Below are positions 3,944 through 64,000 of a stretch of 64,000 bases of DNA, piece by piece (the stretch's first letter is position 1; each line of letters starts with the position of its first letter). Position numbers and translations under genes: made by a program. Source of the DNA: Victivallales bacterium (GTDB lineage: Bacteria; Verrucomicrobiota; Lentisphaeria; Victivallales; UBA1829); assembly GCA_045612485.1 (NCBI GenBank), contig JAZKZE010000084.1, forward strand, positions 692 to 64,691. The letters run 5' to 3'. Below the pieces are notes generated by a model. It worked only from the letters and a program-made list of their open reading frames with translations, had not been told where the DNA came from and did not search any database.

Positions 3944-5725
3944 CTATTGTTTATTTTCCTCATTTTTCAGTTTTTCCAGATCTTGAGCATAACGGGTGAG
4001 TCCGGGGTCGATCCTTACAATATTTTCCAAAGCCCCCCGTAGCAGTTTCTTATCCCCAGTCAGCTGAGCCTTCAGTGCCATTGCGGTATAGTATCCGATA
4101 TTTTTCAGAGCAATTTTTTCACATTCAAGGAAATATTTATCCAGATATTCCAATGCATCCTTTTTCATACCGTGATATGCGGCAGTCAATGCCATATTCC
4201 TGTAAAGGTATATTCTGTATTCCCGTTCGATTTTCAGACTGGAAGTTTCCCTTTCACTCTTTTTTATAAACTGTACAGAAAGTTTATAAAAGGGAAGAGC
4301 GGCTCTGTAATCATTATTCAGCACACAGCAATGCAAAGGAAGATAAGCGGTAAAAGGCCGCAATGCCTGTGCATATCTTTCAGGATATTTGTTCCAGTCC
4401 CGGATAAGTCTGGAAGTGACCGCTCCCAGAAGGGCTGTATCACCGGTAACGATAGCGGAATGGGATCCCACTGTATATAATTTCAGATTGGAGAGTTCTT
4501 TATCCTTCAAAGCCCTTGCAAACAGTCTGCCGGTATCTTCCCAATAGGGCAGATAGAGGAAGCTCTGAATGAAAAATATCCCGCTGAGAAGCAGTACCCC
4601 CGTGCAGATAATGCCGGAGGACTTTGGAAAAAGCCGCAGAGTCCTTTCACAAAGCAATACAAGAAATCCGCATACAGAAATGGAAACAAGATAATTATAT
4701 CTGTCACAGTAATCAAAATTGGTATAATTGAGCATCCCCAGAACAGGTACCATAAGTCCGCCAATAATCAGAAACCACCCCAGGATCTTTTTCCATCCCA
4801 GTCCGGCTTTCCAGCCCCAGAAAATAAATGTACATGCCATCAAACCGCCGCCGAGAAAAACTTTCCAGTAATAATGCCACTTCTGCAAAAGCGGCGGATA
4901 GATGGGATGGATCTGCGGAACAAGGGAGGTAAGGGGATACCAGAAAATATTATGAATGGGAATAAGGTAATTACGTTCCAGTCCTCCGGGGAAGTCCTTT
5001 GCCGTTATGATATAGGAAATAACCAGAATGATCCCGCAGGAAACAAGGGGAAGAAGCAGAAGTTTGAGATACTCTTTCAGAGAGTGTTTTTTGCCCCACG
5101 CACAGATAAGAAATACGATCATGACCCCGGGCAGCGGTACGGTGGAAGGTTTGGTCAGCAGAGCAAGGACAGCAAATATTGTGGAAAATACGGGAAGAGT
5201 CTTCTTTTCTGCATTCCGCATAAAAAGATAGAAGGAAAAGATGGCAAAAGCCCCGCTCAACACATCTTTACGTTCCGTTATCCAGATCACAGACTCCACT
5301 TTCTGGGGATTGAGCGCCCATAACATACAGCCGGCGAAGGCAAGAAACGGACGGATACCGAATCTTTTGAATATGAAATACAGCGTACCTGTACTGAATA
5401 TATGAAGCAGAAGATTATGGATGTGATACCCCAAAGGAGCTTTTCCGAAAAAAAGATTATCCACCATCAGGGAGACCATGGTCATGGGAGTATAAAGATC
5501 CTGAAAGGTATTGGAGAAATATGCTGCAAGGTTCTGCCATGTAAAATCCATGCGGAGATTGACCAGAACAAAATTACCGTCATCCCACAGCGGCAGAAAG
5601 GGAAAATGCATGAAGGGCCCGTAAAGCAGACATGTTACAGCAAAGATCAGAAAAAGATATAAAAAATCTTTCTTGTATTTCTGCAAAAAAGCCGGAAGGG
5701 GAAAATTGTATTTCATCTCATTCAT
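3944..5725 (-). CDS. GT-C fold (PMT/TMTC-like) membrane glycosyltransferase with C-terminal TPR region
   Basis: 593 aa. Multi-TM N-terminal two thirds with an early-loop acidic motif (PLWDDGNFV). The C-terminal ~180 aa are helical-repeat-like (YYTAMALKAQLTGDKKLLRGALENIVRIDP). Confidence 0.55.
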   Translation of the reverse strand: MNEMKYNFPLPAFLQKYKKDFLYLFLIFAVTCLLYGPFMHFPFLPLWDDGNFVLVNLRMDFTWQNLAAYFSNTFQDLYTPMTMVSLMVDNLFFGKAPLGYHIHNLLLHIFSTGTLYFIFKRFGIRPFLAFAGCMLWALNPQKVESVIWITERKDVLSGAFAIFSFYLFMRNAEKKTLPVFSTIFAVLALLTKPSTVPLPGVMIVFLICAWGKKHSLKEYLKLLLLPLVSCGIILVISYIITAKDFPGGLERNYLIPIHNIFWYPLTSLVPQIHPIYPPLLQKWHYYWKVFLGGGLMACTFIFWGWKAGLGWKKILGWFLIIGGLMVPVLGMLNYTNFDYCDRYNYLVSISVCGFLVLLCERTLRLFPKSSGIICTGVLLLSGIFFIQSFLYLPYWEDTGRLFARALKDKELSNLKLYTVGSHSAIVTGDTALLGAVTSRLIRDWNKYPERYAQALRPFTAYLPLHCCVLNNDYRAALPFYKLSVQFIKKSERETSSLKIEREYRIYLYRNMALTAAYHGMKKDALEYLDKYFLECEKIALKNIGYYTAMALKAQLTGDKKLLRGALENIVRIDPGLTRYAQDLEKLKNEENKQ

Positions 5726-55761: not shown

Positions 55762-56361
55762 ATGAAAACATTCTGTCCTCATTGCGGTGGAAAATATGAA
55801 CTTGATCATCAATACATCGGGCAAACAATAAAATGCCCGAATTGTGAAAAAAACTTTGAAGTTGTCAACAGCAATTTGTTTCCTTGTCCGGATTGTTTTT
55901 CTTTGATTTCAAAAAGAGCAGCGGTATGCCCTAAATGCGGTGCGCCTTTAACCCATGAGGAATTGAATCAAAAAGATATTTCAGAGGAACAGAAAATTGA
56001 AATATACCATCCCAGTACAATGAATTATTTATGGTCAATTATTTTGGGCATAATTACTGTACCCGTTTTTTTAATTGGAGTCCTGATACTTCTTTATGTG
56101 ATCATTGAAATAAAGTATACAAGTTATGAATTGACAACACACCGGATCATTGTTCGCAGAGGGTGGATTGCAAAATTACAAAATGAAATTTGGATAAAAG
56201 ATATGCGTGCGGTAAATCTTGTTCAAGGTATTTGGCAACGTATTATCGGCGTTGGCAACATTGCCATTGGAACTGCAGCTTCTGCCGGAACAGAAATAAA
56301 TATTGAGGGAATCAAAAATCCTTCTGAAGTTATTGCTAAAATAAATTCATTGCGTAAATAA
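55762..56361 (+). CDS. Double zinc-ribbon protein fused to a membrane-flanked bacterial PH (bPH_2/YdbT-like) domain
   Basis: CPHCGG...CPNCE and CPDCF...CPKCG. A TM segment follows, then YELTTHRIIVRRGWIAKLQNEIWIKDMRAVNLVQGIWQRIIGVGNIAIGT. Confidence 0.7.
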   Translation: MKTFCPHCGGKYELDHQYIGQTIKCPNCEKNFEVVNSNLFPCPDCFSLISKRAAVCPKCGAPLTHEELNQKDISEEQKIEIYHPSTMNYLWSIILGIITVPVFLIGVLILLYVIIEIKYTSYELTTHRIIVRRGWIAKLQNEIWIKDMRAVNLVQGIWQRIIGVGNIAIGTAASAGTEINIEGIKNPSEVIAKINSLRK

Positions 56362-56837: not shown

Positions 56838-57431
56838 ATGTCCAAAAACAAATCTGCTATTATTCTGTCGGGATTGTCTAGTCGCGACCTCTGCAAGCAA
56901 AATTCTCCAGAGCTTGCAGGATACATTTACATTGTTGACCAAGTTAGTCTTCCGGAGTTGACGGAGTGTGAGTGGAGTGCCGCAGTCAATATTGATTTTT
57001 TTAAAATGTTACTTGCAGGCGAGCGACATCCGCATCAAAAAATTTTTGAATTTTTTATTTCGGTAATTAATACAGGTTTTGTGTCCCTTGAATTTCCGAA
57101 AGCAGAAAATGCCTTTGTTGATATTGATTTTATCAACAGGTCAGATAACTTATGGTATAAACTTACCATTACTTGCGTGAAAACTCAAGATGCTGGCTGT
57201 TCTACTTTCTCTCAAGGATTAACTTGGCACATAAGCGAATATTTTGGAGAACTGGATGCCGATCCAGAAACTTTTTTTCTCGACTCAACTATTGACGATG
57301 CTGTACTTATGGGAAAAGAAGTTTTGCAATGGAACCGTGCCGCAATTCATTTAACAGAAGTAAAACACCCCTTTGCAAAAAAAATGATTGCTGTTTTTGG
57401 ACAAAGCGAAAGGATTGTTGTATGTCCCTGA
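56838..57431 (+). CDS. Hypothetical protein (197 aa), first gene of the sigma/kinase trio
   Basis: AAGGAGA RBS. The stop overlaps the sigma-factor start by 10 nt. No family recognised. Confidence 0.65.
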   Translation: MSKNKSAIILSGLSSRDLCKQNSPELAGYIYIVDQVSLPELTECEWSAAVNIDFFKMLLAGERHPHQKIFEFFISVINTGFVSLEFPKAENAFVDIDFINRSDNLWYKLTITCVKTQDAGCSTFSQGLTWHISEYFGELDADPETFFLDSTIDDAVLMGKEVLQWNRAAIHLTEVKHPFAKKMIAVFGQSERIVVCP

Positions 57432-58030
57432 AATACCCCACAACTTCTAAAACGCTGCTCGATAAAATCGCTTCCGGTGATGAGATCAGTTGGGATGAAT
57501 TTTATCTGAAGTATGCCCCCATAGTAAAAGCTCTTGCAAAATTCAAAGGCTTGGATGCCAATGCCGCGGATGATGTCTGTCAACAGGTTATGCTGCAGTT
57601 TTTCAAGCAGAGCAAAACTTTTAAGTTTGACCCCAATATTGCCAAGTTCAGAACCTACTTCGGCAGGATCGTTAATGCAAAAATCACGAATTATTACCGT
57701 AAAAGAGGAGAAGTCTCTTCCGATGAACCCGAAGAAATTCCTGTGGATTCTGAAGAAGGAAACCTCTTTATGAATGAATGGCGGAAAGCTGTGCTTAAAG
57801 AGGCTGAACAGGAGTTGAAACAGCGGGTTGCACCTGAAACTTTTCAGGCTTATGAATTATACGCAGTTCAGAATCGTCCTGTAAAGAAAGTTGCTGAATA
57901 TCTGGACTGTTCCGAAAATCAGGTCTATCAGGCAAAGAAACGCTGTTTTGCTATGATGCGTGAGATATTGCTTGCGATGAATGAACAGGATCCTGAATTG
58001 CAGTTGGAGTTGTCGAAATATGACTTGTAA
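57422..58030 (+). CDS. ECF-type sigma-70 family RNA polymerase sigma factor
   Basis: Region-2-like DEFYLKYAPIVKALAKFKGLDANAADDVCQQVMLQFF...FRTYFGRIVNAKITNYYRKR. Region-4 HTH VAEYLDCSENQVYQAKKRCFAMMREIL. ATG at 57422. Confidence 0.8.
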   Translation: MSLKYPTTSKTLLDKIASGDEISWDEFYLKYAPIVKALAKFKGLDANAADDVCQQVMLQFFKQSKTFKFDPNIAKFRTYFGRIVNAKITNYYRKRGEVSSDEPEEIPVDSEEGNLFMNEWRKAVLKEAEQELKQRVAPETFQAYELYAVQNRPVKKVAEYLDCSENQVYQAKKRCFAMMREILLAMNEQDPELQLELSKYDL

Positions 58031-59513
58031 TGTCGGCGATACCATTTGCAACTGTACACTTTTGCAGAAATGCGGCGATGGTGCTTATGGCGAAGTCTGG
58101 CTTGCTCACGATGCTATCGGAACCCGTGTTGCTCTGAAAATAATCAAAAATGGCGGCAGGTATTCTGAAAGAGAACTTGCGGGACTTAAAAATTACAAAG
58201 ACTGCAACCACCCCAATCTGTTGAAAATCCGTTATGTGGAAATTACCGATGCAAAAATCATCTGCATTATGGATGCAGCCGATGCCCTCAATCACGGTAA
58301 CGGCGAATATAAGCCCGATACCCTTGCCAACCGTTTAAGAAAATACGGCAGGCTGGACGGTAAAGAGATCACAGACATGCTCGACGGGTTGCTTGCCGGT
58401 TTGGAAGAACTCCACAAACATGGACTGGTTCACCGGGACATCAAGCCGGATAATATATTGTGGGTGAATGGCAGAGCGACACTTGCCGATGTGGGGTTGA
58501 TCGCCTTTGAGGGAGCAGGTTCACTGGTGGGGACGCCGGGCTTTCTTTCGCCACGGGTACTTGAGGGGAATCCAGCTGAAGCCAGCGACGACTTTTACGC
58601 TTTGGGCAAAGTGATCTACTGCGCTCTGACCGGACTTGCTGTGAGTGAATATCCGAGCATTCCTGCTGATATGACCATCAGCGTGGATGCCAATTTGAAT
58701 AAAGCTCTGCGCACAAGCTGTGCTGTCCCTATCAATTCAACCGCAGAGTTCAGGAAACTGTTGGCTGGCAAGCAAATCACTCCCGCCCCGCAGAACGGGA
58801 AAGACAAACGGCTGTTGCCCCTTAAAACAATATTGTCCGCAGTGGTAATTATTGCGCTGCTTGGAGGTTTTGTTTATCTCTTTTATCAGCAAAAGCAAAT
58901 GGAAGCCCAACATATCCCTCAACCGGTTGAAATTGATCCCGAAGCTGAAGAAAAGTTAAAACAGCTTCAAAATGCTGATAAGGATTTTCAAAGAAAGATT
59001 CAAACAGAGGTACTGGCATTTTTCAAAAAATCAGGCTGGCTTGATAATGGAAAAATGCTGCCGTTGCTGCTTGATTACAAAGTTATGAAACGGGAGGATA
59101 TGCAAGGTCTCCTTTTTGACAGCACCGATAATCCCCGTTTGAAACCGATCCATGGAGTTTATCGCAAAAAAGTTCGTGGAGTTACGCCGCTTGAGTCGAA
59201 ATTATGGGGAATGCTTCACGGTACTCATTATCCCGACTTTGACATTGCGAAGGTTCTGGAACGGCAGCGTTATTGGAGAAGATGCAAGGGAGATCCTGCA
59301 CAGATACTGAAAGAAATGTTGACCACTGATCCCGTGATGCAGGCTGTCGCATTGGATGCGGTTATCCGTCACGGGATCAACAAAGTATTGGAACATGGGG
59401 CGTTCCGTGACAACGAAGAAGCTGAACTCAAAAATTTGCTCTATATGCGTCAAGCTCTGCTTGATCCGGAATGGGGAAAGATCAAGCAGTTTATGTCAGG
59501 AAATTTGCCTTGA
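58020..59513 (+). CDS. Transmembrane Ser/Thr protein kinase (Hanks type) with an unknown C-terminal domain
   Basis: G-loop GDGAYGEVW, VALKII, HRDIKPDNILW, DVG (a DFG variant), GTPGFLSP. TM segment ILSAVVIIALLGGFVYLFY. The ATG at 58020 overlaps the sigma gene by 11 nt. Confidence 0.85.
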   Translation: MTCNVGDTICNCTLLQKCGDGAYGEVWLAHDAIGTRVALKIIKNGGRYSERELAGLKNYKDCNHPNLLKIRYVEITDAKIICIMDAADALNHGNGEYKPDTLANRLRKYGRLDGKEITDMLDGLLAGLEELHKHGLVHRDIKPDNILWVNGRATLADVGLIAFEGAGSLVGTPGFLSPRVLEGNPAEASDDFYALGKVIYCALTGLAVSEYPSIPADMTISVDANLNKALRTSCAVPINSTAEFRKLLAGKQITPAPQNGKDKRLLPLKTILSAVVIIALLGGFVYLFYQQKQMEAQHIPQPVEIDPEAEEKLKQLQNADKDFQRKIQTEVLAFFKKSGWLDNGKMLPLLLDYKVMKREDMQGLLFDSTDNPRLKPIHGVYRKKVRGVTPLESKLWGMLHGTHYPDFDIAKVLERQRYWRRCKGDPAQILKEMLTTDPVMQAVALDAVIRHGINKVLEHGAFRDNEEAELKNLLYMRQALLDPEWGKIKQFMSGNLP

Positions 59514-59526
59514 ATTGGCTTTAATA

Positions 59527-59565
59527 TTTGTGAAAATCGCAACTCCTACTTGAGATTTTCACAAA
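59527..59565. repeat. 12-bp perfect inverted repeat just after the kinase stop
   Basis: tttgtgaaaatc (59527-59538) and gattttcacaaa (59554-59565), with a 15-nt loop and no clean T-tract. It could be a terminator or an operator. Confidence 0.7.
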
Positions 59566-59826
59566 ATCAGAAAAATTTTAAAATCTTGCGACAAATCGTG
59601 AATTTGTTTGCGAATAATAGGGTGAAGAAAGAAATTTCTTCCATGCAAACAAAAATGCGATTTGATTTTGCGAGATTGTGATGCTATGTTATTTACCAAC
59701 CAAAAATGAAAGGTAAAAAACAAAAACAGTAATCACAAAAATTTGAAAATCATATAATTCGCATTTTTCAAGCGGATCGAAACTCAGGAAAACGCCAAAG
59801 GACAGAGAAAAAGATCGATTTGCTTG

Positions 59827-59922
59827 GAGTGCGTCTGTCTATACAGACGTACTCTGTTTGCATGGTCTTTTTCGGGTATTGGCGTACCTCCTGAGTCATG
59901 AAAATGGGGTACGTCTTTTTTT
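59827..59922 (+). promoter_or_regulatory. Structured leader with alternative hairpins and a terminator-like element upstream of the AAA+ cassette
   Basis: Hairpin gagtgcgtctg/cagacgtactc (59827-59854). Second hairpin ggcgtacc/ggtacgtc (59881-59888 and 59908-59915) followed by seven T residues (59916-59922). The segment gacgtac at 59846-59852 can alternatively pair with gtacgtc at 59909-59915. Confidence 0.45.
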
Positions 59923-59958
59923 GTGTATAAATATTAACTCAAAAAGCAGGAGGTCATT

Positions 59959-60408
59959 ATGGCTGACAATGAAAAAATGGCAGAACAGAACGATCTTAAA
60001 GTTTTGCTGCAGCAGTGGAAAGAATCCGGTCTTTCCGTCGATGAATTTTGTAAAAAGTATCTTGCTGAAAATGGCGTTGAAAATCCGGATGAAGTATTGA
60101 GCAGAATTGATGCGCAGTTTGAGCGAATTGAAAAACATTATATCGGCATTAAGGAAATGAAAGAAAATGGAGGAACCCGGGCGGAGTATATTGAGAAAGT
60201 TTGCAGTCCCGTTCTTGATGCCGTATCTGTGGAGAAAGCAAGTGATGCAATCGGCGCATTGATTTCCGACATTTCTGGAGAAGAAGGTTTGACAGTTCCA
60301 TTCGGCAATGATGAAGAGAAAGAAAATGCTTTTGAAGGTTTGGCAGAGGCGATCAAAGCTAATACTTTAAATACTTTACAAGAAGAATATGCTGTCAAGG
60401 AGAAATAA
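59959..60408 (+). CDS. Hypothetical highly acidic protein (149 aa), cassette gene 1
   Basis: Strong AGGAGG RBS. No family recognised. Confidence 0.7.
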   Translation: MADNEKMAEQNDLKVLLQQWKESGLSVDEFCKKYLAENGVENPDEVLSRIDAQFERIEKHYIGIKEMKENGGTRAEYIEKVCSPVLDAVSVEKASDAIGALISDISGEEGLTVPFGNDEEKENAFEGLAEAIKANTLNTLQEEYAVKEK

Positions 60409-60409
60409 A

Positions 60410-60949
60410 ATGGAAAACAATCTTGAACATACAGATTTGCAGAATGAGAATGTCGCTGAAAATGCAGCCGATGTAGGAATAAATCCCGAAAAAATCAGAG
60501 CTATTCGTAAAATTCTGGCTGCTGACCAAGTTGCCTCTCAAAAGGACAATATTCTGCCGGAAGCAGCAGCGGCAATTTCAGATACGGCAACTTTTGAATT
60601 GGATCAGCAAAAGAAACTTGCAGACGGAGAAATAACTGAAATCGAATATGTTGAAAATCTCGTTGACCGTAAAACAGCACAATTTTGCACATGGTTTGAA
60701 AACAATGGCGTTGAGTTGTGCGAAAAAGGCGGAGCGATTTTAGGGAATGCTGTTGGTTTTGTATTATTTCCCTGGGACCGGGAATTCGCAAAAAAATGTT
60801 CTGATATTGGAGCAAAAATTGGAAGAGCTTTGGGCCCGGTAGTTACCAAAGTCGTAAAAAAAGCCGCATCTATGTTGTCCGGAGTTATTAAAACAACGGC
60901 GGGTGTTATTGCAAGTTGTGGGAAGGTTATACGTACATTGTTTTCTTGA
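60410..60949 (+). CDS. Hypothetical protein (179 aa) with acidic N-terminal half and Gly/Lys-rich amphipathic C-terminal half, cassette gene 2
   Basis: The ATG at 60410 lies 1 nt after the upstream TAA, behind AAGGAGA. C-terminus GGAILGNAVGFVLFPW...GAKIGRALGPVVTKVVKKAASMLSGVIKTTAGVIASCGKVIRTLFS. Confidence 0.7.
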   Translation: MENNLEHTDLQNENVAENAADVGINPEKIRAIRKILAADQVASQKDNILPEAAAAISDTATFELDQQKKLADGEITEIEYVENLVDRKTAQFCTWFENNGVELCEKGGAILGNAVGFVLFPWDREFAKKCSDIGAKIGRALGPVVTKVVKKAASMLSGVIKTTAGVIASCGKVIRTLFS

Positions 60950-60959
60950 GTGATAAACC

Positions 60960-62564
60960 ATGACTGCGAATAGCAAAACAACGGTTAGCATATTAACCGA
61001 CTACATCGAAGCAGAAATGCCAGTAATATACATCAACAGTTTCGATTTTGAAGCTGTTGATGATGTTATCGCTGATGCCGTTAAAGCATGGCAAAAACAG
61101 TATCCTGAAGATAGATCGTATCGGATCGAGGAATTTTCTCATATTCATGGAACTGTTGATTTCAAGCACAAGGATGCTGGAGATTTAGAGTGTGATTTGA
61201 TTGGTTTTCTGAAAGACAAAGATCGTGATTTTAAAAAGAAACATAATTTTGTTATTTTGCGTGAAATTCATGATTGCATAAGAAATGAAAAGGTATATTC
61301 TGCAATCCAATCAATTGCTTGCAGGAAAAGCAAATTTAATGCGAGAAAACGGAATGAAAGTAATTTAGCTTATACCACGATTTTCATTGTTGATACCAAA
61401 TTGGAAATCCCATCCGAAATAGAACATTTGATCACAGTGGTTGATTTGAAAGATCCGGAAATTGACGAGATCAAAGCAATTTTGCAGACAATCGCAAATG
61501 ATAACGATACCGACTGTACCGAGTATGGACTTGATGCATTGGCTGAATGCTTTAAAGGATATTCCCGTTTGGAGATCAAACGAATTGCAAAATTGGCTGT
61601 CAGTCTGGAAGGAGCCATTGAGTTCAACAGCTGTAAAAAAATCATTGAATCTGAAAAAAAGCAAGCTTTCAAGAAGTCAAATCTTCTGGAATATATTATT
61701 CCCAAGCAAGATGAAATCGGTGGTTTGGAGCATCTTAAAAAATTTTTATCAACAGAAAAAGATTTTTTTAAAAAGTCCGAAGAAGCATACAAATGGGGAA
61801 AAATAAAACCGCCCACAGGAATCGTATTACTTGGTATGCCGGGATGCGGAAAAAGTTTATGTGCCAATCTTGTGGCAAGAGAATTTGACTGTCCTTTGCT
61901 ACGTTTGGATATGGGGCGTATTTTAGGGAAATATGTTGGTGAAAGCGAAGAGAATTTTCGTCGTACTTTGAAAACTGTCGAACGATCTTCGCCTTGCATT
62001 TTGTGGATCGATGAACTTGAAAAAGCCTTTTCCGGTGTCAATGGCGAAGGCAGTGGTGGTGAGATAATGACACGGCTTCTGGGATTCTTTCTTACCTGGC
62101 TGCAGGAAAAAACAAGTCCAATCTATGTTTTTGCCACAGCCAACGACATTTCAAAACTTCCGCCAGAATTTCTACGCAAAGGACGTTTTGATGAGATTTT
62201 TCGGGTTATGCTTCCTGATGAAAATGATCTTAAAGATATTTTCAGAACACAAGTTGCGGCTCACTTTGGCGATCGTGAGAAATCTTTAAGTTTGGATTAT
62301 CACAAACTGGCAGTTGCTTGTAGCGGAAAGAAATTTTCTGGAGCAGATGTCGCGTGTATTGTAAATGAAGCGTGCAAAAAAGCCTTCCTTGATACTCGGG
62401 AGAAGCGTGTTTTGCAAATGAATCATTTGCTGGATGCAATCAAAGTTTCAGTATCAAGCTATTTCGCAGATAAAGAAAAATATGAGGCAATGGAGAAAAA
62501 ATTATTGTCTCGTTCCGCAGTTGACGCTTCTACAGGAAAAACAGGTAACGGGGGAGAAAAATGA
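60960..62564 (+). CDS. AAA+ ATPase, classical AAA clade, Ycf46-like architecture (N-terminal domain plus one AAA module)
   Basis: Walker A LLGMPGCGKS, Walker B CILWIDELEKAF, second region of homology FLRKGRFDEIF. N-terminus MPVIYINSFDFEAVDDVI resembles the Ycf46-type N-domain. Confidence 0.85.
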   Translation: MTANSKTTVSILTDYIEAEMPVIYINSFDFEAVDDVIADAVKAWQKQYPEDRSYRIEEFSHIHGTVDFKHKDAGDLECDLIGFLKDKDRDFKKKHNFVILREIHDCIRNEKVYSAIQSIACRKSKFNARKRNESNLAYTTIFIVDTKLEIPSEIEHLITVVDLKDPEIDEIKAILQTIANDNDTDCTEYGLDALAECFKGYSRLEIKRIAKLAVSLEGAIEFNSCKKIIESEKKQAFKKSNLLEYIIPKQDEIGGLEHLKKFLSTEKDFFKKSEEAYKWGKIKPPTGIVLLGMPGCGKSLCANLVAREFDCPLLRLDMGRILGKYVGESEENFRRTLKTVERSSPCILWIDELEKAFSGVNGEGSGGEIMTRLLGFFLTWLQEKTSPIYVFATANDISKLPPEFLRKGRFDEIFRVMLPDENDLKDIFRTQVAAHFGDREKSLSLDYHKLAVACSGKKFSGADVACIVNEACKKAFLDTREKRVLQMNHLLDAIKVSVSSYFADKEKYEAMEKKLLSRSAVDASTGKTGNGGEK

Positions 62565-63751
62565 TAAAAGGACCTTTTAAAATAAATGGTAATTTGATTC
62601 TAACCCTGGATGACCTGCAGAAACATTTTGATATCCTTGAAATACTCAAAAAGCCAAAAGGACTTATCAGGTTTCTTGAGGAAACTGCACCTGAAAAAGC
62701 TTGTAAGGTTAAGGAGATAGAGTTTTTTCCGACTTATGAATTTGTTGACAAAATTACTGAAGTCTTAAATTGTGAGCAATACTTTCAGGATTCATTGAAC
62801 TTGATCTTTCATTTTTCAGGGATTACAGATCAGCTCTGGTGGAAATTTGTTAACAGTTGGGACTCAAAAGATCAGAGAATTTCTAAAGATTTTATTGACT
62901 TTAAGGATGCTCTGAACAGAAGAAATATGACTTCATTAATATTTGAAGTCGATGAGAACAGACTTCCTGATGCAGCATGGGCAAGACTGGTTCGCAACAC
63001 ATCTCCGGCTGATATTGAGGAATCTAAAAGGGAAAAGTTTATACAGATACAAAAACTGATTTCGTCCGGCATTGTCAGCAGAATCACTGTCAGTGCAGAA
63101 TCGGATAACAACCGTCCTACATCATCCAGTTCAAAACTGAAAACATTCAAAGAAAATGAGTTTTTAGAGGGGGTGGCAAATCTGCCACAAGAAATTGAAT
63201 TGACAGGGCATTTGGCAGAACGAGTTAAAGATATTTTCTTATTATCTGCTGAAACATGGGAAACATTGTTGGGAACTGAAAAAATATCTCCTGATGATAA
63301 GGATGCTTTATCAAAGCTAGAAAAAAATCTTAGGAAACAAAATCCTTTTCGGTTTAATGATGTTTTTTTTACAATGCATCCTCTTTTAGGGGGCATAATG
63401 TATATTGCTAGGGAATTAGTTGGTTCTAACTCTTTGATCGAATCTTTAATGAAATTCCGTCGCTTGCACTTATTAGAAAATTATGAGGTAGTTTCATATT
63501 CTTCTGACAGTAAGAAAAAGCAATTGATTTTGCGTTTTAATTCCAACCGGCAAGAAAAACATTTCACTACTGTTTGGAAAGAGTGCTGTCTGACTTGCAA
63601 CCATTTTAGATGTCGCCGCAAATTTGTAAATAAGAAATATATCAGTTATGAGTCAGATATTGGATTTTGTGGCGATTACTCAAGTTCAATAGAGCGATTT
63701 GATCATTCTTGTCATAAATACAATTATGAACGTTGGTGGGAGTTGAAATAA
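62561..63751 (+). CDS. Hypothetical protein (396 aa) with Cys/His-rich C-terminus, cassette gene 4
   Basis: ATGA start/stop overlap with the AAA+ gene. GGGGGAG RBS. C-terminus ECCLTCNHFRCRRKF...FCGDYSSSIERFDHSCHKY. Confidence 0.7.
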   Translation: MIKGPFKINGNLILTLDDLQKHFDILEILKKPKGLIRFLEETAPEKACKVKEIEFFPTYEFVDKITEVLNCEQYFQDSLNLIFHFSGITDQLWWKFVNSWDSKDQRISKDFIDFKDALNRRNMTSLIFEVDENRLPDAAWARLVRNTSPADIEESKREKFIQIQKLISSGIVSRITVSAESDNNRPTSSSSKLKTFKENEFLEGVANLPQEIELTGHLAERVKDIFLLSAETWETLLGTEKISPDDKDALSKLEKNLRKQNPFRFNDVFFTMHPLLGGIMYIARELVGSNSLIESLMKFRRLHLLENYEVVSYSSDSKKKQLILRFNSNRQEKHFTTVWKECCLTCNHFRCRRKFVNKKYISYESDIGFCGDYSSSIERFDHSCHKYNYERWWELK

Positions 63752-63752
63752 A

Positions 63753-63917
63753 ATGATTTATTGTGAATTTGAGTATCAGTTGAATTGCGGTGGGAATTGG
63801 AACCGTACCCGACAGAGATTGTCTGCGTGTACCACTGCTGCCGCAAAAGATTGGGTCAAGGCGCATTACGGCAGTAATGCCAGATGTATTGCAATCAGAA
63901 ATTTAAAAGCAATTTGA
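63753..63917 (+). CDS. Hypothetical 54-aa Cys-containing protein, cassette gene 5
   Basis: Hand-translated: MIYCEFEYQLNCGGNWNRTRQRLSACTTAAAKDWVKAHYGSNARCIAIRNLKAI. Starts 1 nt after the upstream TAA. Not in the ORF track. Confidence 0.45.
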   Translation: MIYCEFEYQLNCGGNWNRTRQRLSACTTAAAKDWVKAHYGSNARCIAIRNLKAI

Positions 63918-63928
63918 GGACTTGTTCC

Positions 63929-64000
63929 ATGATACAAAAAACACCAGTTCCTGAGTTTCAGTGGAAACAGGCGATTTGCTGTACTTGTGAATACTGGGGC
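63929..64000 (+). CDS. Partial ORF (MIQKTPVPEFQWKQAICCTCEYWG...), cassette gene 6, truncated by the window end
   Basis: ATG at 63929 behind GAGGA. Shares the CC-x-TC-x-aromatic motif with the C-terminus of gene 4. Confidence 0.4.
   Translation, partial: MIQKTPVPEFQWKQAICCTCEYWG

Follow-up and report, generated by a model that had tools for sequence, protein, structure and literature searches.

The DNA considered here, which we refer to as the window, is a stretch of 64,000 nucleotides (nt) from a Victivallales bacterium of the Lentisphaeria (GenBank assembly GCA_045612485.1, contig JAZKZE010000084.1, positions 692 to 64,691 of the forward strand), the far end of which is occupied by an operon built around an AAA+ ATPase of the Ycf46 type. 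The principal finding is that the first four genes of this operon represent one instance of a conserved three-protein module, consisting of a protein that we designate A, a Ycf46-type pseudo-tandem unfoldase, and a protein that we designate C. The initial annotation of this DNA, which was made from the letters of the sequence, had surrounded the ATPase with several independent partners, and this picture has to be revised: the conserved unit comprises three proteins, with two of the supposed partners (w149 and w179) belonging to one family and a third (w54) being confined to the closest relatives of the window.

Genes of the Operon

The operon contains six co-directional open reading frames (ORFs) on the + strand, named below by their lengths in amino acids (aa).

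59959-60408, + strand: w149, 149 aa, N-terminal half of protein A
60410-60949, + strand: w179, 179 aa, C-terminal half of protein A
60960-62564, + strand: Ycf46-type AAA+ ATPase, 534 aa, with Pfam AAA and AAA_lid_3
62561-63751, + strand: w396, 396 aa, protein C
63753-63917, + strand: w54, 54 aa, a small basic protein with four Cys residues
63929-64000, + strand: sixth ORF, first 24 codons of a 75-aa Cys-domain protein that is cut by the window edge

Re-inspection of the ORFs found all six of them, every junction between them, and the AAA motifs at the positions that had been reported. The TAA of w149 (60406-60408) is followed by the ATG of w179 at 60410, a spacing of 10 nt separates w179 from the ATPase gene (60949/60960), the ATPase gene and w396 overlap in an ATGA at 62561-62564, the TAA of w396 ends at 63751 with the ATG of w54 at 63753, and a further 11-nt spacing (63917/63929) precedes the sixth ORF; ribosome-binding sites of the GGAG type lie ahead of 59959 and of 60410. 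The description of the region as an AT-rich accessory segment holds as far as composition is concerned, the G+C content being 0.37-0.40 over most of 55-64 kb, but the dip is only a modest one against the ~0.44-0.49 of the rest of the window. The genes past the window edge were viewed in a close relative, L002 (relatives of the locus are given L numbers throughout), which shows 92% identity to the window across 4.2 kb, and in which a 75-aa gene completes the sixth ORF and more genes lie beyond it.

The AAA+ ATPase

The ATPase carries the motifs GMPGCGKS, ILWIDELEKAF, and RKGRFDEIF, as had been noted initially, within a Pfam AAA domain at residues 288-416 (E 8e-29), and is matched over its full length by phrog_8638 (E 4e-88), the function of which is not known. 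Its homologues number more than 7900, some of them named as SpoVK/Ycf46/Vps4 family, and the closest public relative, at 92% identity, is named as coming from a Lentisphaeria metagenome-assembled genome. The assignment to the Ycf46 type follows from comparison with the Microcystis ATPase, to which the window protein is 44-45% identical across ~93% of its length, and with JGI-named "SpoVK/Ycf46/Vps4 family" proteins, which are similarly related; the similarity is collinear and extends through the N-terminal half.

The AAA module had been described as sitting behind an N-domain of ~270 aa, and it is this part of the protein that now reads differently. The N-half has no Pfam match and no PDB sequence match, and a GxxxxGK[ST] motif is absent from the first 270 residues. 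A model of the ATPase computed with AlphaFold2 (AF2) from 79 homologues (mean predicted local distance difference test score, pLDDT, 86) opens directly with a D1-like alpha/beta domain, and a Foldseek search with this model gave alignments of ~550-590 columns against p97, Cdc48, and Rix7, covering their D1-D2 tandems, with template modeling (TM) scores of 0.60-0.66. Because the protein aligns to these tandems and lacks a P-loop in this half, residues ~1-240 are predicted to be a degenerate AAA D1 domain, consisting of an alpha/beta part plus lid, rather than a separate N-domain. The degenerate D1 half cannot bind nucleotide, the D2 half is intact, and the aromatic pore loop is conserved. Among the 79 homologues, residues P21, Y24, D29, F30, and H104 of the N-half are invariant, as are, entirely or nearly so, Walker A (GMPGCGKS), Walker B (DELE), the pore loop (KYVG), and RKGRFD. 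By sequence, the D2 half is nearest to D2 of p97/Cdc48 (E 3e-50), and the closest solved relatives of the protein are p97/Cdc48, Rix7, and AFG2; the D2 motif set reads as the signature of a substrate-threading unfoldase. The only defense-library model that matches the ATPase is IetA (PADLOC E 2.5e-21; NCBIfam IteA_antiphage E 1e-17).

Protein A

The protein w149 is acidic and helical, with an isoelectric point of 4.4 that bears out its earlier description as strongly acidic, and is 38-45% identical to the first operon gene in L004 and L006; the first gene of L007 is also homologous. The relationship between w149 and w179 emerges from other lineages, in which a single longer protein is found. 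L009 encodes one protein of 330 aa, the N-terminal part of which aligns to w149 and the C-terminal part to w179, and when w179 was searched exhaustively with phmmer against 1.84 billion representatives, only 19 clusters were found at E < 1e-3, four of which are fused forms of ~350 aa with the w179-like part at the C-terminal end. On a hidden Markov model (HMM) built only from fused A proteins (330-377 aa), w149 falls on model positions 28-138 (E 4e-7) and w179 on 162-339 (E 2e-21), so the two window proteins are collinear with the fused form. Since fused forms exist elsewhere and both halves match the fused-only HMM in order, w149 and w179 are two halves of one protein family, encoded by a single fused gene in other lineages, and we treat them as one protein A.

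The N-terminal part of protein A is helical and carries a G-x-s-x3-WL motif. It is followed by a conserved D-R motif region, which in the window reads LIDRKTAQFCTWFE, then by a GxxxG-rich segment and amphipathic helices, and the C-terminus is hydrophobic or aromatic (..LFS, ..LFG, ..FGF). Correspondingly, w179 contains a conserved LxDRKTAQFCTWFE motif, a GxxxGxxxG motif, amphipathic helices, and a hydrophobic end (..TLFS). Glycine-zipper or amphipathic tails were seen in the A proteins of every lineage examined, and glycine-rich membrane segments also end other module proteins (L015 p393 and L005 p293). Among fused homologues, P0146 scores 26.2 bits against the cut-off of 25 for Pfam Gly-zipper_Omp, fused forms reach 28.8 bits against the cut-off of 28 for DUF6861, and they also match the glycine-zipper region of YiaD. 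This likeness is limited to ~45 residues of low-complexity zipper; the other ~300 residues of A have no known relative in the libraries and PDB profile searches, and the PDB profile search with protein A gave chance-level or glycine-zipper matches only. Neither w149 nor w179 has a match above threshold in Pfam, PADLOC 2.0, PHROGs, or NCBIfam. A helix-turn-helix reading of w149 was rejected, the match to IS66 TnpA comprising only 18 residues (E 0.001) and lying under the cut-off.

A group of long A proteins of 505-523 aa (L012 9626-11143, L017 7712-9259, L019 4310-5881) has an extra conserved middle domain, LDGFIAEQHH.NSFN...YQAKYG, which has no Pfam match.

Protein C and the Small Cys Proteins

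The window representative of protein C, w396, begins with an N-terminal domain of ~85 aa (residues ~3-86), continues with a helical middle part that is variable, and closes with a Cys-rich domain of the pattern CCxxC...GxC...C..Y..W, in keeping with its earlier description as ending in a Cys cluster. A protein identical to w396 is encoded on an NCBI contig of 66 kb. The N-domain aligns with the N-termini of ATPase neighbors in every sampled lineage but the enterobacterial plasmids (the L006 contig stops right after the ATPase gene). What follows the N-domain differs from lineage to lineage: the Cys-rich domain is shared by the window, L004, and L007; Microcystis C proteins carry a CobW-type GTPase (metallochaperone) domain; Firmicutes C proteins have a conserved 200-aa C-terminal domain ending in ..YMEV; L015 has three tandem N-domain copies plus a glycine-rich membrane tail; and the C-terminal region of L009, which has repeated D-G-x-x-W-like motifs and no library match, may be beta-propeller-like. 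For w396, as for w54, no match above threshold was obtained in the same four libraries that were searched with protein A, and a PDB profile search with the C N-domain returned chance-level matches only.

Protein C appears to evolve quickly. Between w396 and its L002 orthologue there are 69 non-synonymous and 33 synonymous codon differences, as against 43 and 44 in the ATPase; residues ~245-310 are hypervariable, with unrelated sequence substituted among otherwise close alleles in the alignment; and the C genes of L005 and L007 cannot be aligned. It is this excess of non-synonymous changes, together with the allelic replacement of the middle and the unalignable genes, that suggests the rapid evolution of w396.

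The two small genes that follow have different histories. We conclude firmly that w54 is lineage-specific and that the sixth gene is a paralogous Cys-domain cassette. w54 is 93% identical in L001 and L002, and BLASTP found no counterpart among L004-L006 proteins, the only ones being in close relatives of the window; compared with a 92%-identical relative it shows 8 synonymous and 4 non-synonymous codon differences, as expected of a coding gene. The sixth ORF had been recognized as a Cys-motif protein cut by the edge, which L002 bears out with a full 75-aa gene (4162-4389) that is 96% identical over the 24 available residues. It is a free-standing paralogue of the C-terminal Cys domain of w396, residues 335-395 of which align with the 72-aa versions from L004 and L007.

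Downstream of the operon in three lineages there is a protein of ~290 aa (L005 6452-7333; L002 5379-6101), with a glycine-rich hydrophobic segment, ALLFGALGGLPVFPLAAGVGGTGMGIF, an acidic tail, and no Pfam match, which may be a further membrane component.

Distribution and Genomic Contexts

The same trio of A, ATPase, and C occurs in 11 further locus groups belonging to at least four phyla, with ATPase identities of 36-50%, and is represented in Lentisphaeria, Clostridia, Bacilli, and Microcystis. Throughout the sampled module loci the ATPase always adjoins A and nearly always at least one C protein, and relatives whose proteins are only 35-50% identical keep the same gene order. The nearest of the diverged relatives are L004/L005, L006, and L007/L008, with ATPases 48-50% identical to that of the window; the order in L004-L008 is sigma factor of the extracytoplasmic function (ECF) type, Ser/Thr kinase, gap, a protein of ~150 aa, one of ~160-177 aa, the ATPase, and then further genes. 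These code first for one or two products of 144-344 aa, next for the 72-aa Cys protein, and then for products of 291, 64, and 205 aa; in L006 the operon also includes a DUF1232 membrane protein. More distant instances are the following.

L009: trio, with A fused as one 330-aa protein
L012, Lachnobacterium mobilizable element: trio, with ParB, TnpV, MobC/relaxase, and serine recombinase genes nearby
L015, metagenome contig: trio
L017, Clostridium butyricum megaplasmid: trio preceded by a WYL regulator, with recombinase and transposase genes close by
L018, Exiguobacterium plasmid: trio directly after McrBC
L019, Klebsiella/Enterobacter plasmids (e.g., NZ_CP084774.1 24653-38026): A and a 715-aa Ycf46-like ATPase
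L020, Microcystis plasmid: trio, with toxin-antitoxin genes nearby
L021, cyanobacterium-like contig: trio adjoining a psbA-type gene

The association was also recovered where it had not been used to define the families: L023, which was absent from HMM building, gave the order C-A-C-AAA, with E values of 4e-15, 6e-71, and 6e-21, and has HEPN_RES/RES and RadC genes adjoining. The plasmid records that match A have the ATPase directly adjacent in all cases (18/18). When loci were collected from IMG/VR by their related ATPases, A and C were present in only three of 80, these being the best matches (37-39% identity, nearly full-length); distant ATPases have other neighbors, and in phages the ATPase falls to 31-33% identity and has no N-half. 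An ATPase relative in the Streptococcus satellite Javan368 was set aside, since its neighbors differ. No relative turned up when GTDB genomes and JGI metagenomes were scanned with the ATPase, w149, or w179, nor in a viral-contig scan with w149. The genes form a conserved neighborhood, the trio recurring across distant bacteria and often on mobile DNA. Defense-like surroundings are also frequent, the neighbors in relatives including a WYL regulator, McrBC, a RES toxin, and genes for relaxases or recombinases.

The enterobacterial plasmids depart from this organization, with no C N-domain protein detected in them. The cluster instead contains two VWA proteins, a DUF1887 CARF protein, a PP2C phosphatase, a kinase, and another AAA protein, and looks like a composite conflict system.

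A comparison of L005 with L007 sets the core module apart from its surroundings. The A and ATPase genes share ~71% DNA identity (the core reaching 71% at most) and the C genes are unalignable, whereas the downstream block (p72, p291, p64, and p205; L005 5960-8201 against L007 6821-8904) is 90-97% identical, a pattern that points to a core module either replaced as a cassette or diverging at a faster pace.

Upstream Regulatory Region

The operon is preceded by a sigma factor gene, a kinase gene, and a conserved noncoding region.

57422-58030, + strand: ECF-type sigma factor, 202 aa from the start codon common to homologues, with Sigma70_r2 (E 3e-9) and Sigma70_r4_2
58020-59513, + strand: Ser/Thr protein kinase, Pfam Pkinase (E 2e-28), with a conserved C-terminal domain
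59640-59690, + strand: promoter-like block, with a 20-nt box at 59640-59659, a -35 element TTGATT at 59662-59667, a 17-nt spacer, and a -10 element TATGTT at 59685-59690
59782-59922, + strand: predicted structured RNA leader, ~140 nt in all, with a rod-like hairpin of ~115 nt at 59782-59896

The sigma factor scores 65.7 bits against the TIGR02937 cut-off of 42.9, and its identity to the sigma factors encoded ahead of this operon in L004 and L006 is 69-73%. The kinase, which has a hydrophobic segment at residues ~285-305 (in the numbering of a 510-aa ORF), overlaps the sigma gene by 11 nt, an overlap found identically in L004, and is 48-91% identical to the kinases in the same place in L001, L004, and L006, with the initial kinase fragment of L007 also homologous. 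The window pair thus fits the type of an ECF sigma factor, with regions 2 and 4, and a predicted coupled kinase, a pair that L004 and L006 have as well.

The promoter-like block occurs with equal spacing upstream of the leader in L001, L004, L006, and L007, and a promoter activity is suggested by this conservation; the block matches eight of 12 consensus positions and was not listed by a consensus promoter scan. No ECF-type promoter could be recognized upstream of the operon. Separate predictions for the window, L004, and L006 arrived at the same leader fold (z-scores of -6.3 to -7.8), and the fold is accompanied by compensatory changes. The upstream and leader DNA is more conserved than the coding genes downstream, and the leader is also present in L001 and L004-L008; it has one copy in the window, occurs only in loci of the sigma/kinase type, and has no Rfam match at E up to 1 (59400-60100 searched). 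The 3' arm of the rod could possibly form an alternative terminator, in which GGCGTACCTCC (59881-59891) would pair with GGGGTACGTC (59906-59915) ahead of seven T (59916-59922).

The initial annotation had already placed the genes behind a structured leader and a sigma/kinase pair, and both prove to keep their place next to the operon across four diverged lineages of Lentisphaeria. The flanking genes vary (GH106 in L004, rpoA/rplQ in L006), and insertions occur, such as that of a DUF3791 gene between kinase and operon in L006; since the unit persists regardless, sigma factor, kinase, and operon appear to be a block that is kept together. An AAA_14/DUF4143 ATPase gene lies between kinase and leader in L001 (1678-2835) and L007 (791-1948), and these two genes are 82% identical in loci that have otherwise diverged.

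Two further genes of the window lie upstream of this region. The gene at 55762-56361, ahead of the sigma/kinase pair, encodes a protein of 199 aa in which two zinc ribbons are combined with a hydrophobic segment and a bacterial PH (bPH_2) domain, and a 197-aa ORF at 56838-57431, with no match in any library, overlaps the start of the sigma gene (57422) with its 3' end.

Comparison with Known Systems

The statement that the gene set could not be mapped onto a known system has stood up to searches of Pfam, PADLOC 2.0, PHROGs, NCBIfam, and PDB sequences, in all of which the partners are unmatched. When A and C proteins from six loci were run against PADLOC-DB 2.0, the matches were none or marginal (PDC-M09B E 0.01, LeoB 5e-4, JetA 0.04), and these three identities were rejected, as they were not reproduced in homologues. 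A literature search for Ycf46-type ATPases combined with glycine-zipper or YtxH proteins in defense yielded nothing relevant.

Among the nearest counterparts is the cyanobacterial ycf46 operon (Synechocystis slr0373-slr0374-slr0376; Synechococcus Synpcc7942_0416-0418), to which the window operon is likened through the published description. The ATPase is a full-length relative of cyanobacterial Ycf46-type proteins, and Microcystis-type loci have the same A and C families. They differ in that A is split into two genes in the window and C has a Cys4 domain in place of the CobW GTPase, and, compared with the cyanobacterial operon, that of the window has acquired the ECF sigma/Ser-Thr kinase pair and the RNA leader, in a Lentisphaeria host that is not photosynthetic.

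With Cdc48/p97/VAT and Rix7, the ATPase has in common the tandem D1-D2 fold, the aromatic pore loop, and the arginine-finger motifs, and a similar logic of dedicated adaptor plus substrate may apply. Unlike Cdc48/p97, however, the window protein has no P-loop in D1 and no N-terminal double-psi-barrel adaptor-binding domain, its partners are unrelated to Ufd1/Npl4 or UBX proteins, and the locus encodes no ubiquitin-like tag system. The anti-phage system IetAS (AAA+ protein IetA plus protease IetS) likewise pairs a classical-clade AAA+ with a partner encoded on accessory DNA, but the match to IetA covers the AAA module only (residues 274-519) and reaches 64 bits where the NCBIfam cut-off is 510; a D1-like half is missing from IetA, IetAS has no counterpart of A and C, and no protease domain was found by Pfam in any gene neighboring the ATPase.

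The Vps4/ESCRT-III and PspA/Vipp1 systems also place a classical-clade AAA+ beside a helical membrane-directed protein and are stress-induced, a resemblance in logic only: the window ATPase lacks an MIT domain, neither A nor C has a Snf7 or PspA_IM30 match, and those systems have no polymorphic C. Finally, the tail of A shares GxxxGxxxG-type repeats with glycine-zipper proteins (Gly-zipper_Omp, YMGG, YtxH, and pore-forming toxins).

Proposed Mechanism and Alternative Explanations

The interpretation that we favor, at a probability of roughly 45%, is that the module is an unfoldase-controlled membrane-active effector that would cause arrest under severe stress or invasion, with C serving as adaptor or sensor. 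A hexameric ATPase would thread or remodel protein A, possibly from its conserved C-terminal end, and this action would decide between a soluble, inactive state of A and a membrane-inserted one. Protein C would dock on the ATPase through its shared N-domain, and its variable, fast-evolving C-terminal domain would provide the trigger or specificity; the output would be a change in membrane integrity that leads to growth arrest or abortive infection when stress or invasion is severe. For the Lentisphaeria lineage of the window, expression may be further gated by the membrane Ser/Thr kinase and ECF sigma factor, as well as by the structured 5' leader. A role in conflict is favored because of the mobile and defense-island contexts, the polymorphism of C, and the cassette-like divergence of the core.

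Several observations weigh against this interpretation and are best considered together. The tail of w179, initially described as membrane-active-looking, is indeed amphipathic with a glycine-zipper motif (GAILGNAVG), but it has no classical transmembrane helix, the maximum 19-residue hydropathy being 1.3, and it falls below every Pfam glycine-zipper cut-off. The AF2 model of w396, computed from eight close homologues, has a pLDDT of 51 and is not usable. The conserved promoter-like block resembles a housekeeping, sigma-70 promoter and not an ECF-type one, and therefore what ties the sigma/kinase pair to the operon is synteny. One trio lies beside a psbA-type gene on a cyanobacterium-like contig, and ycf46 of cyanobacteria belongs to a stress-induced three-gene operon of unknown function (PMC7496141; bioRxiv 10.1101/2025.07.21.665879), the published behavior of which is no less compatible with a housekeeping role in stress than with immunity. 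Given the Microcystis and psbA-type contexts and the stress induction of that operon, a role in stress or membrane homeostasis is as defensible as an anti-phage one. In addition, PADLOC 2.0 has no model for A or C, and no published screen was found that backs a defense role.

The main alternative is that the module maintains or repairs membranes, with A coating stressed membranes as YtxH, PspA/Vipp1, or ESCRT-III-like proteins do, the AAA+ recycling A in the manner of Vps4, the C proteins acting as adaptors, and the cell being protected. Envelope stress is a classical input of ECF sigma factors and membrane kinases, and the syntenic sigma/kinase pair of the four lineages would suit such a role, as would the DUF1232 membrane protein of the L006 operon, the label "YtxH domain-containing" given by NCBI to a Microcystis A protein, the chromosomal cyanobacterial copies together with the trio beside the psbA-type gene, and the induction of the cyanobacterial ycf46 operon by many abiotic stresses (PMC7496141). 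We nevertheless consider this account rather unlikely, as no A protein has a PspA_IM30, Snf7, or YtxH match in Pfam at E up to 1, the N-half of the ATPase is an AAA-like D1 and not an MIT-like domain, and a polymorphic C, carried on plasmids and mobilizable elements beside restriction and toxin genes, would be unusual for housekeeping. A general proteostatic or regulatory unfoldase, working on soluble clients (in cyanobacteria, clock, ribosome, or carbon-uptake factors) with A and C as co-chaperones or clients that have no membrane role, would agree with the closest solved relatives p97/Cdc48, Rix7, and AFG2 being general unfoldases, with the CobW-type metallochaperone domain of Microcystis C proteins, and with the interaction with KaiC and the effects on CO2 utilization that are published for cyanobacterial Ycf46, as cited in bioRxiv 10.1101/2025.07.21.665879. 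Such a role leaves unaccounted for the glycine-zipper or amphipathic tails that are found in the A proteins of every lineage and in other module proteins, and the strict adjacency of A and AAA+ genes points to a dedicated partner instead of a broad clientele, so that we regard it as distinctly improbable.

Less probable still is an addiction or stabilization cassette, in which A would be a membrane toxin and ATPase and C an antidote that is always needed, without any sensing of an invader: the module does occur on plasmids, on a mobilizable element, and in islands resembling mobile genetic elements, with toxin-antitoxin genes near the Microcystis plasmid trio, but the window copy and its relatives lie among ordinary chromosomal genes (glycoside hydrolases, rpoA/ribosomal-protein genes), and the sigma/kinase, leader, and WYL layers, like the polymorphic C, would be surplus to simple addiction. 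That there is no system at all, but an AAA+ gene with unrelated or spurious ORFs on its flanks, is scarcely credible. The partners do lack database annotation and w54 is lineage-restricted, yet the same partners recur across phyla, were recovered in L023, and in the case of w149 and w179 are fused into one protein elsewhere, and such conserved co-occurrence already contradicts this reading. A structural or replication role in a prophage was rejected, since no partner has a PHROG match and the phage ATPases, at 31-33% identity, are without the N-half.

Significance

The ATPase family has been named before. No library or paper that could be searched describes its two partner families, the obligatory link between them and this clade of ATPases, the occurrence of A in split and fused form, the modular build of C, or the RNA leader. 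A broader proposal, which we offer tentatively and with some doubt, is that the Ycf46 trio may constitute a widespread, unrecognized class of stress or immune effectors, in which a pseudo-tandem unfoldase arms or disarms a glycine-zipper permeabilizing protein A under the direction of polymorphic adaptors, with the cyanobacterial and plastid ycf46 being a domesticated chromosomal form and the leader a new class of cis-regulatory RNA.

With the two new protein families, protein A and the C N-domain, comes a conserved structured RNA leader that has no Rfam match. The module may furthermore represent a new mechanism of defense or abortive infection, and if its mobile versions (those of Clostridium, Lachnospiraceae, and Exiguobacterium, and the enterobacterial pairing of A and AAA) are defensive, a Cdc48-like unfoldase would drive the system. 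For Ycf46 itself, a conserved ORF of cyanobacteria and plastids, the finding supplies two dedicated and previously unannotated partner families, and its role thereby becomes testable.

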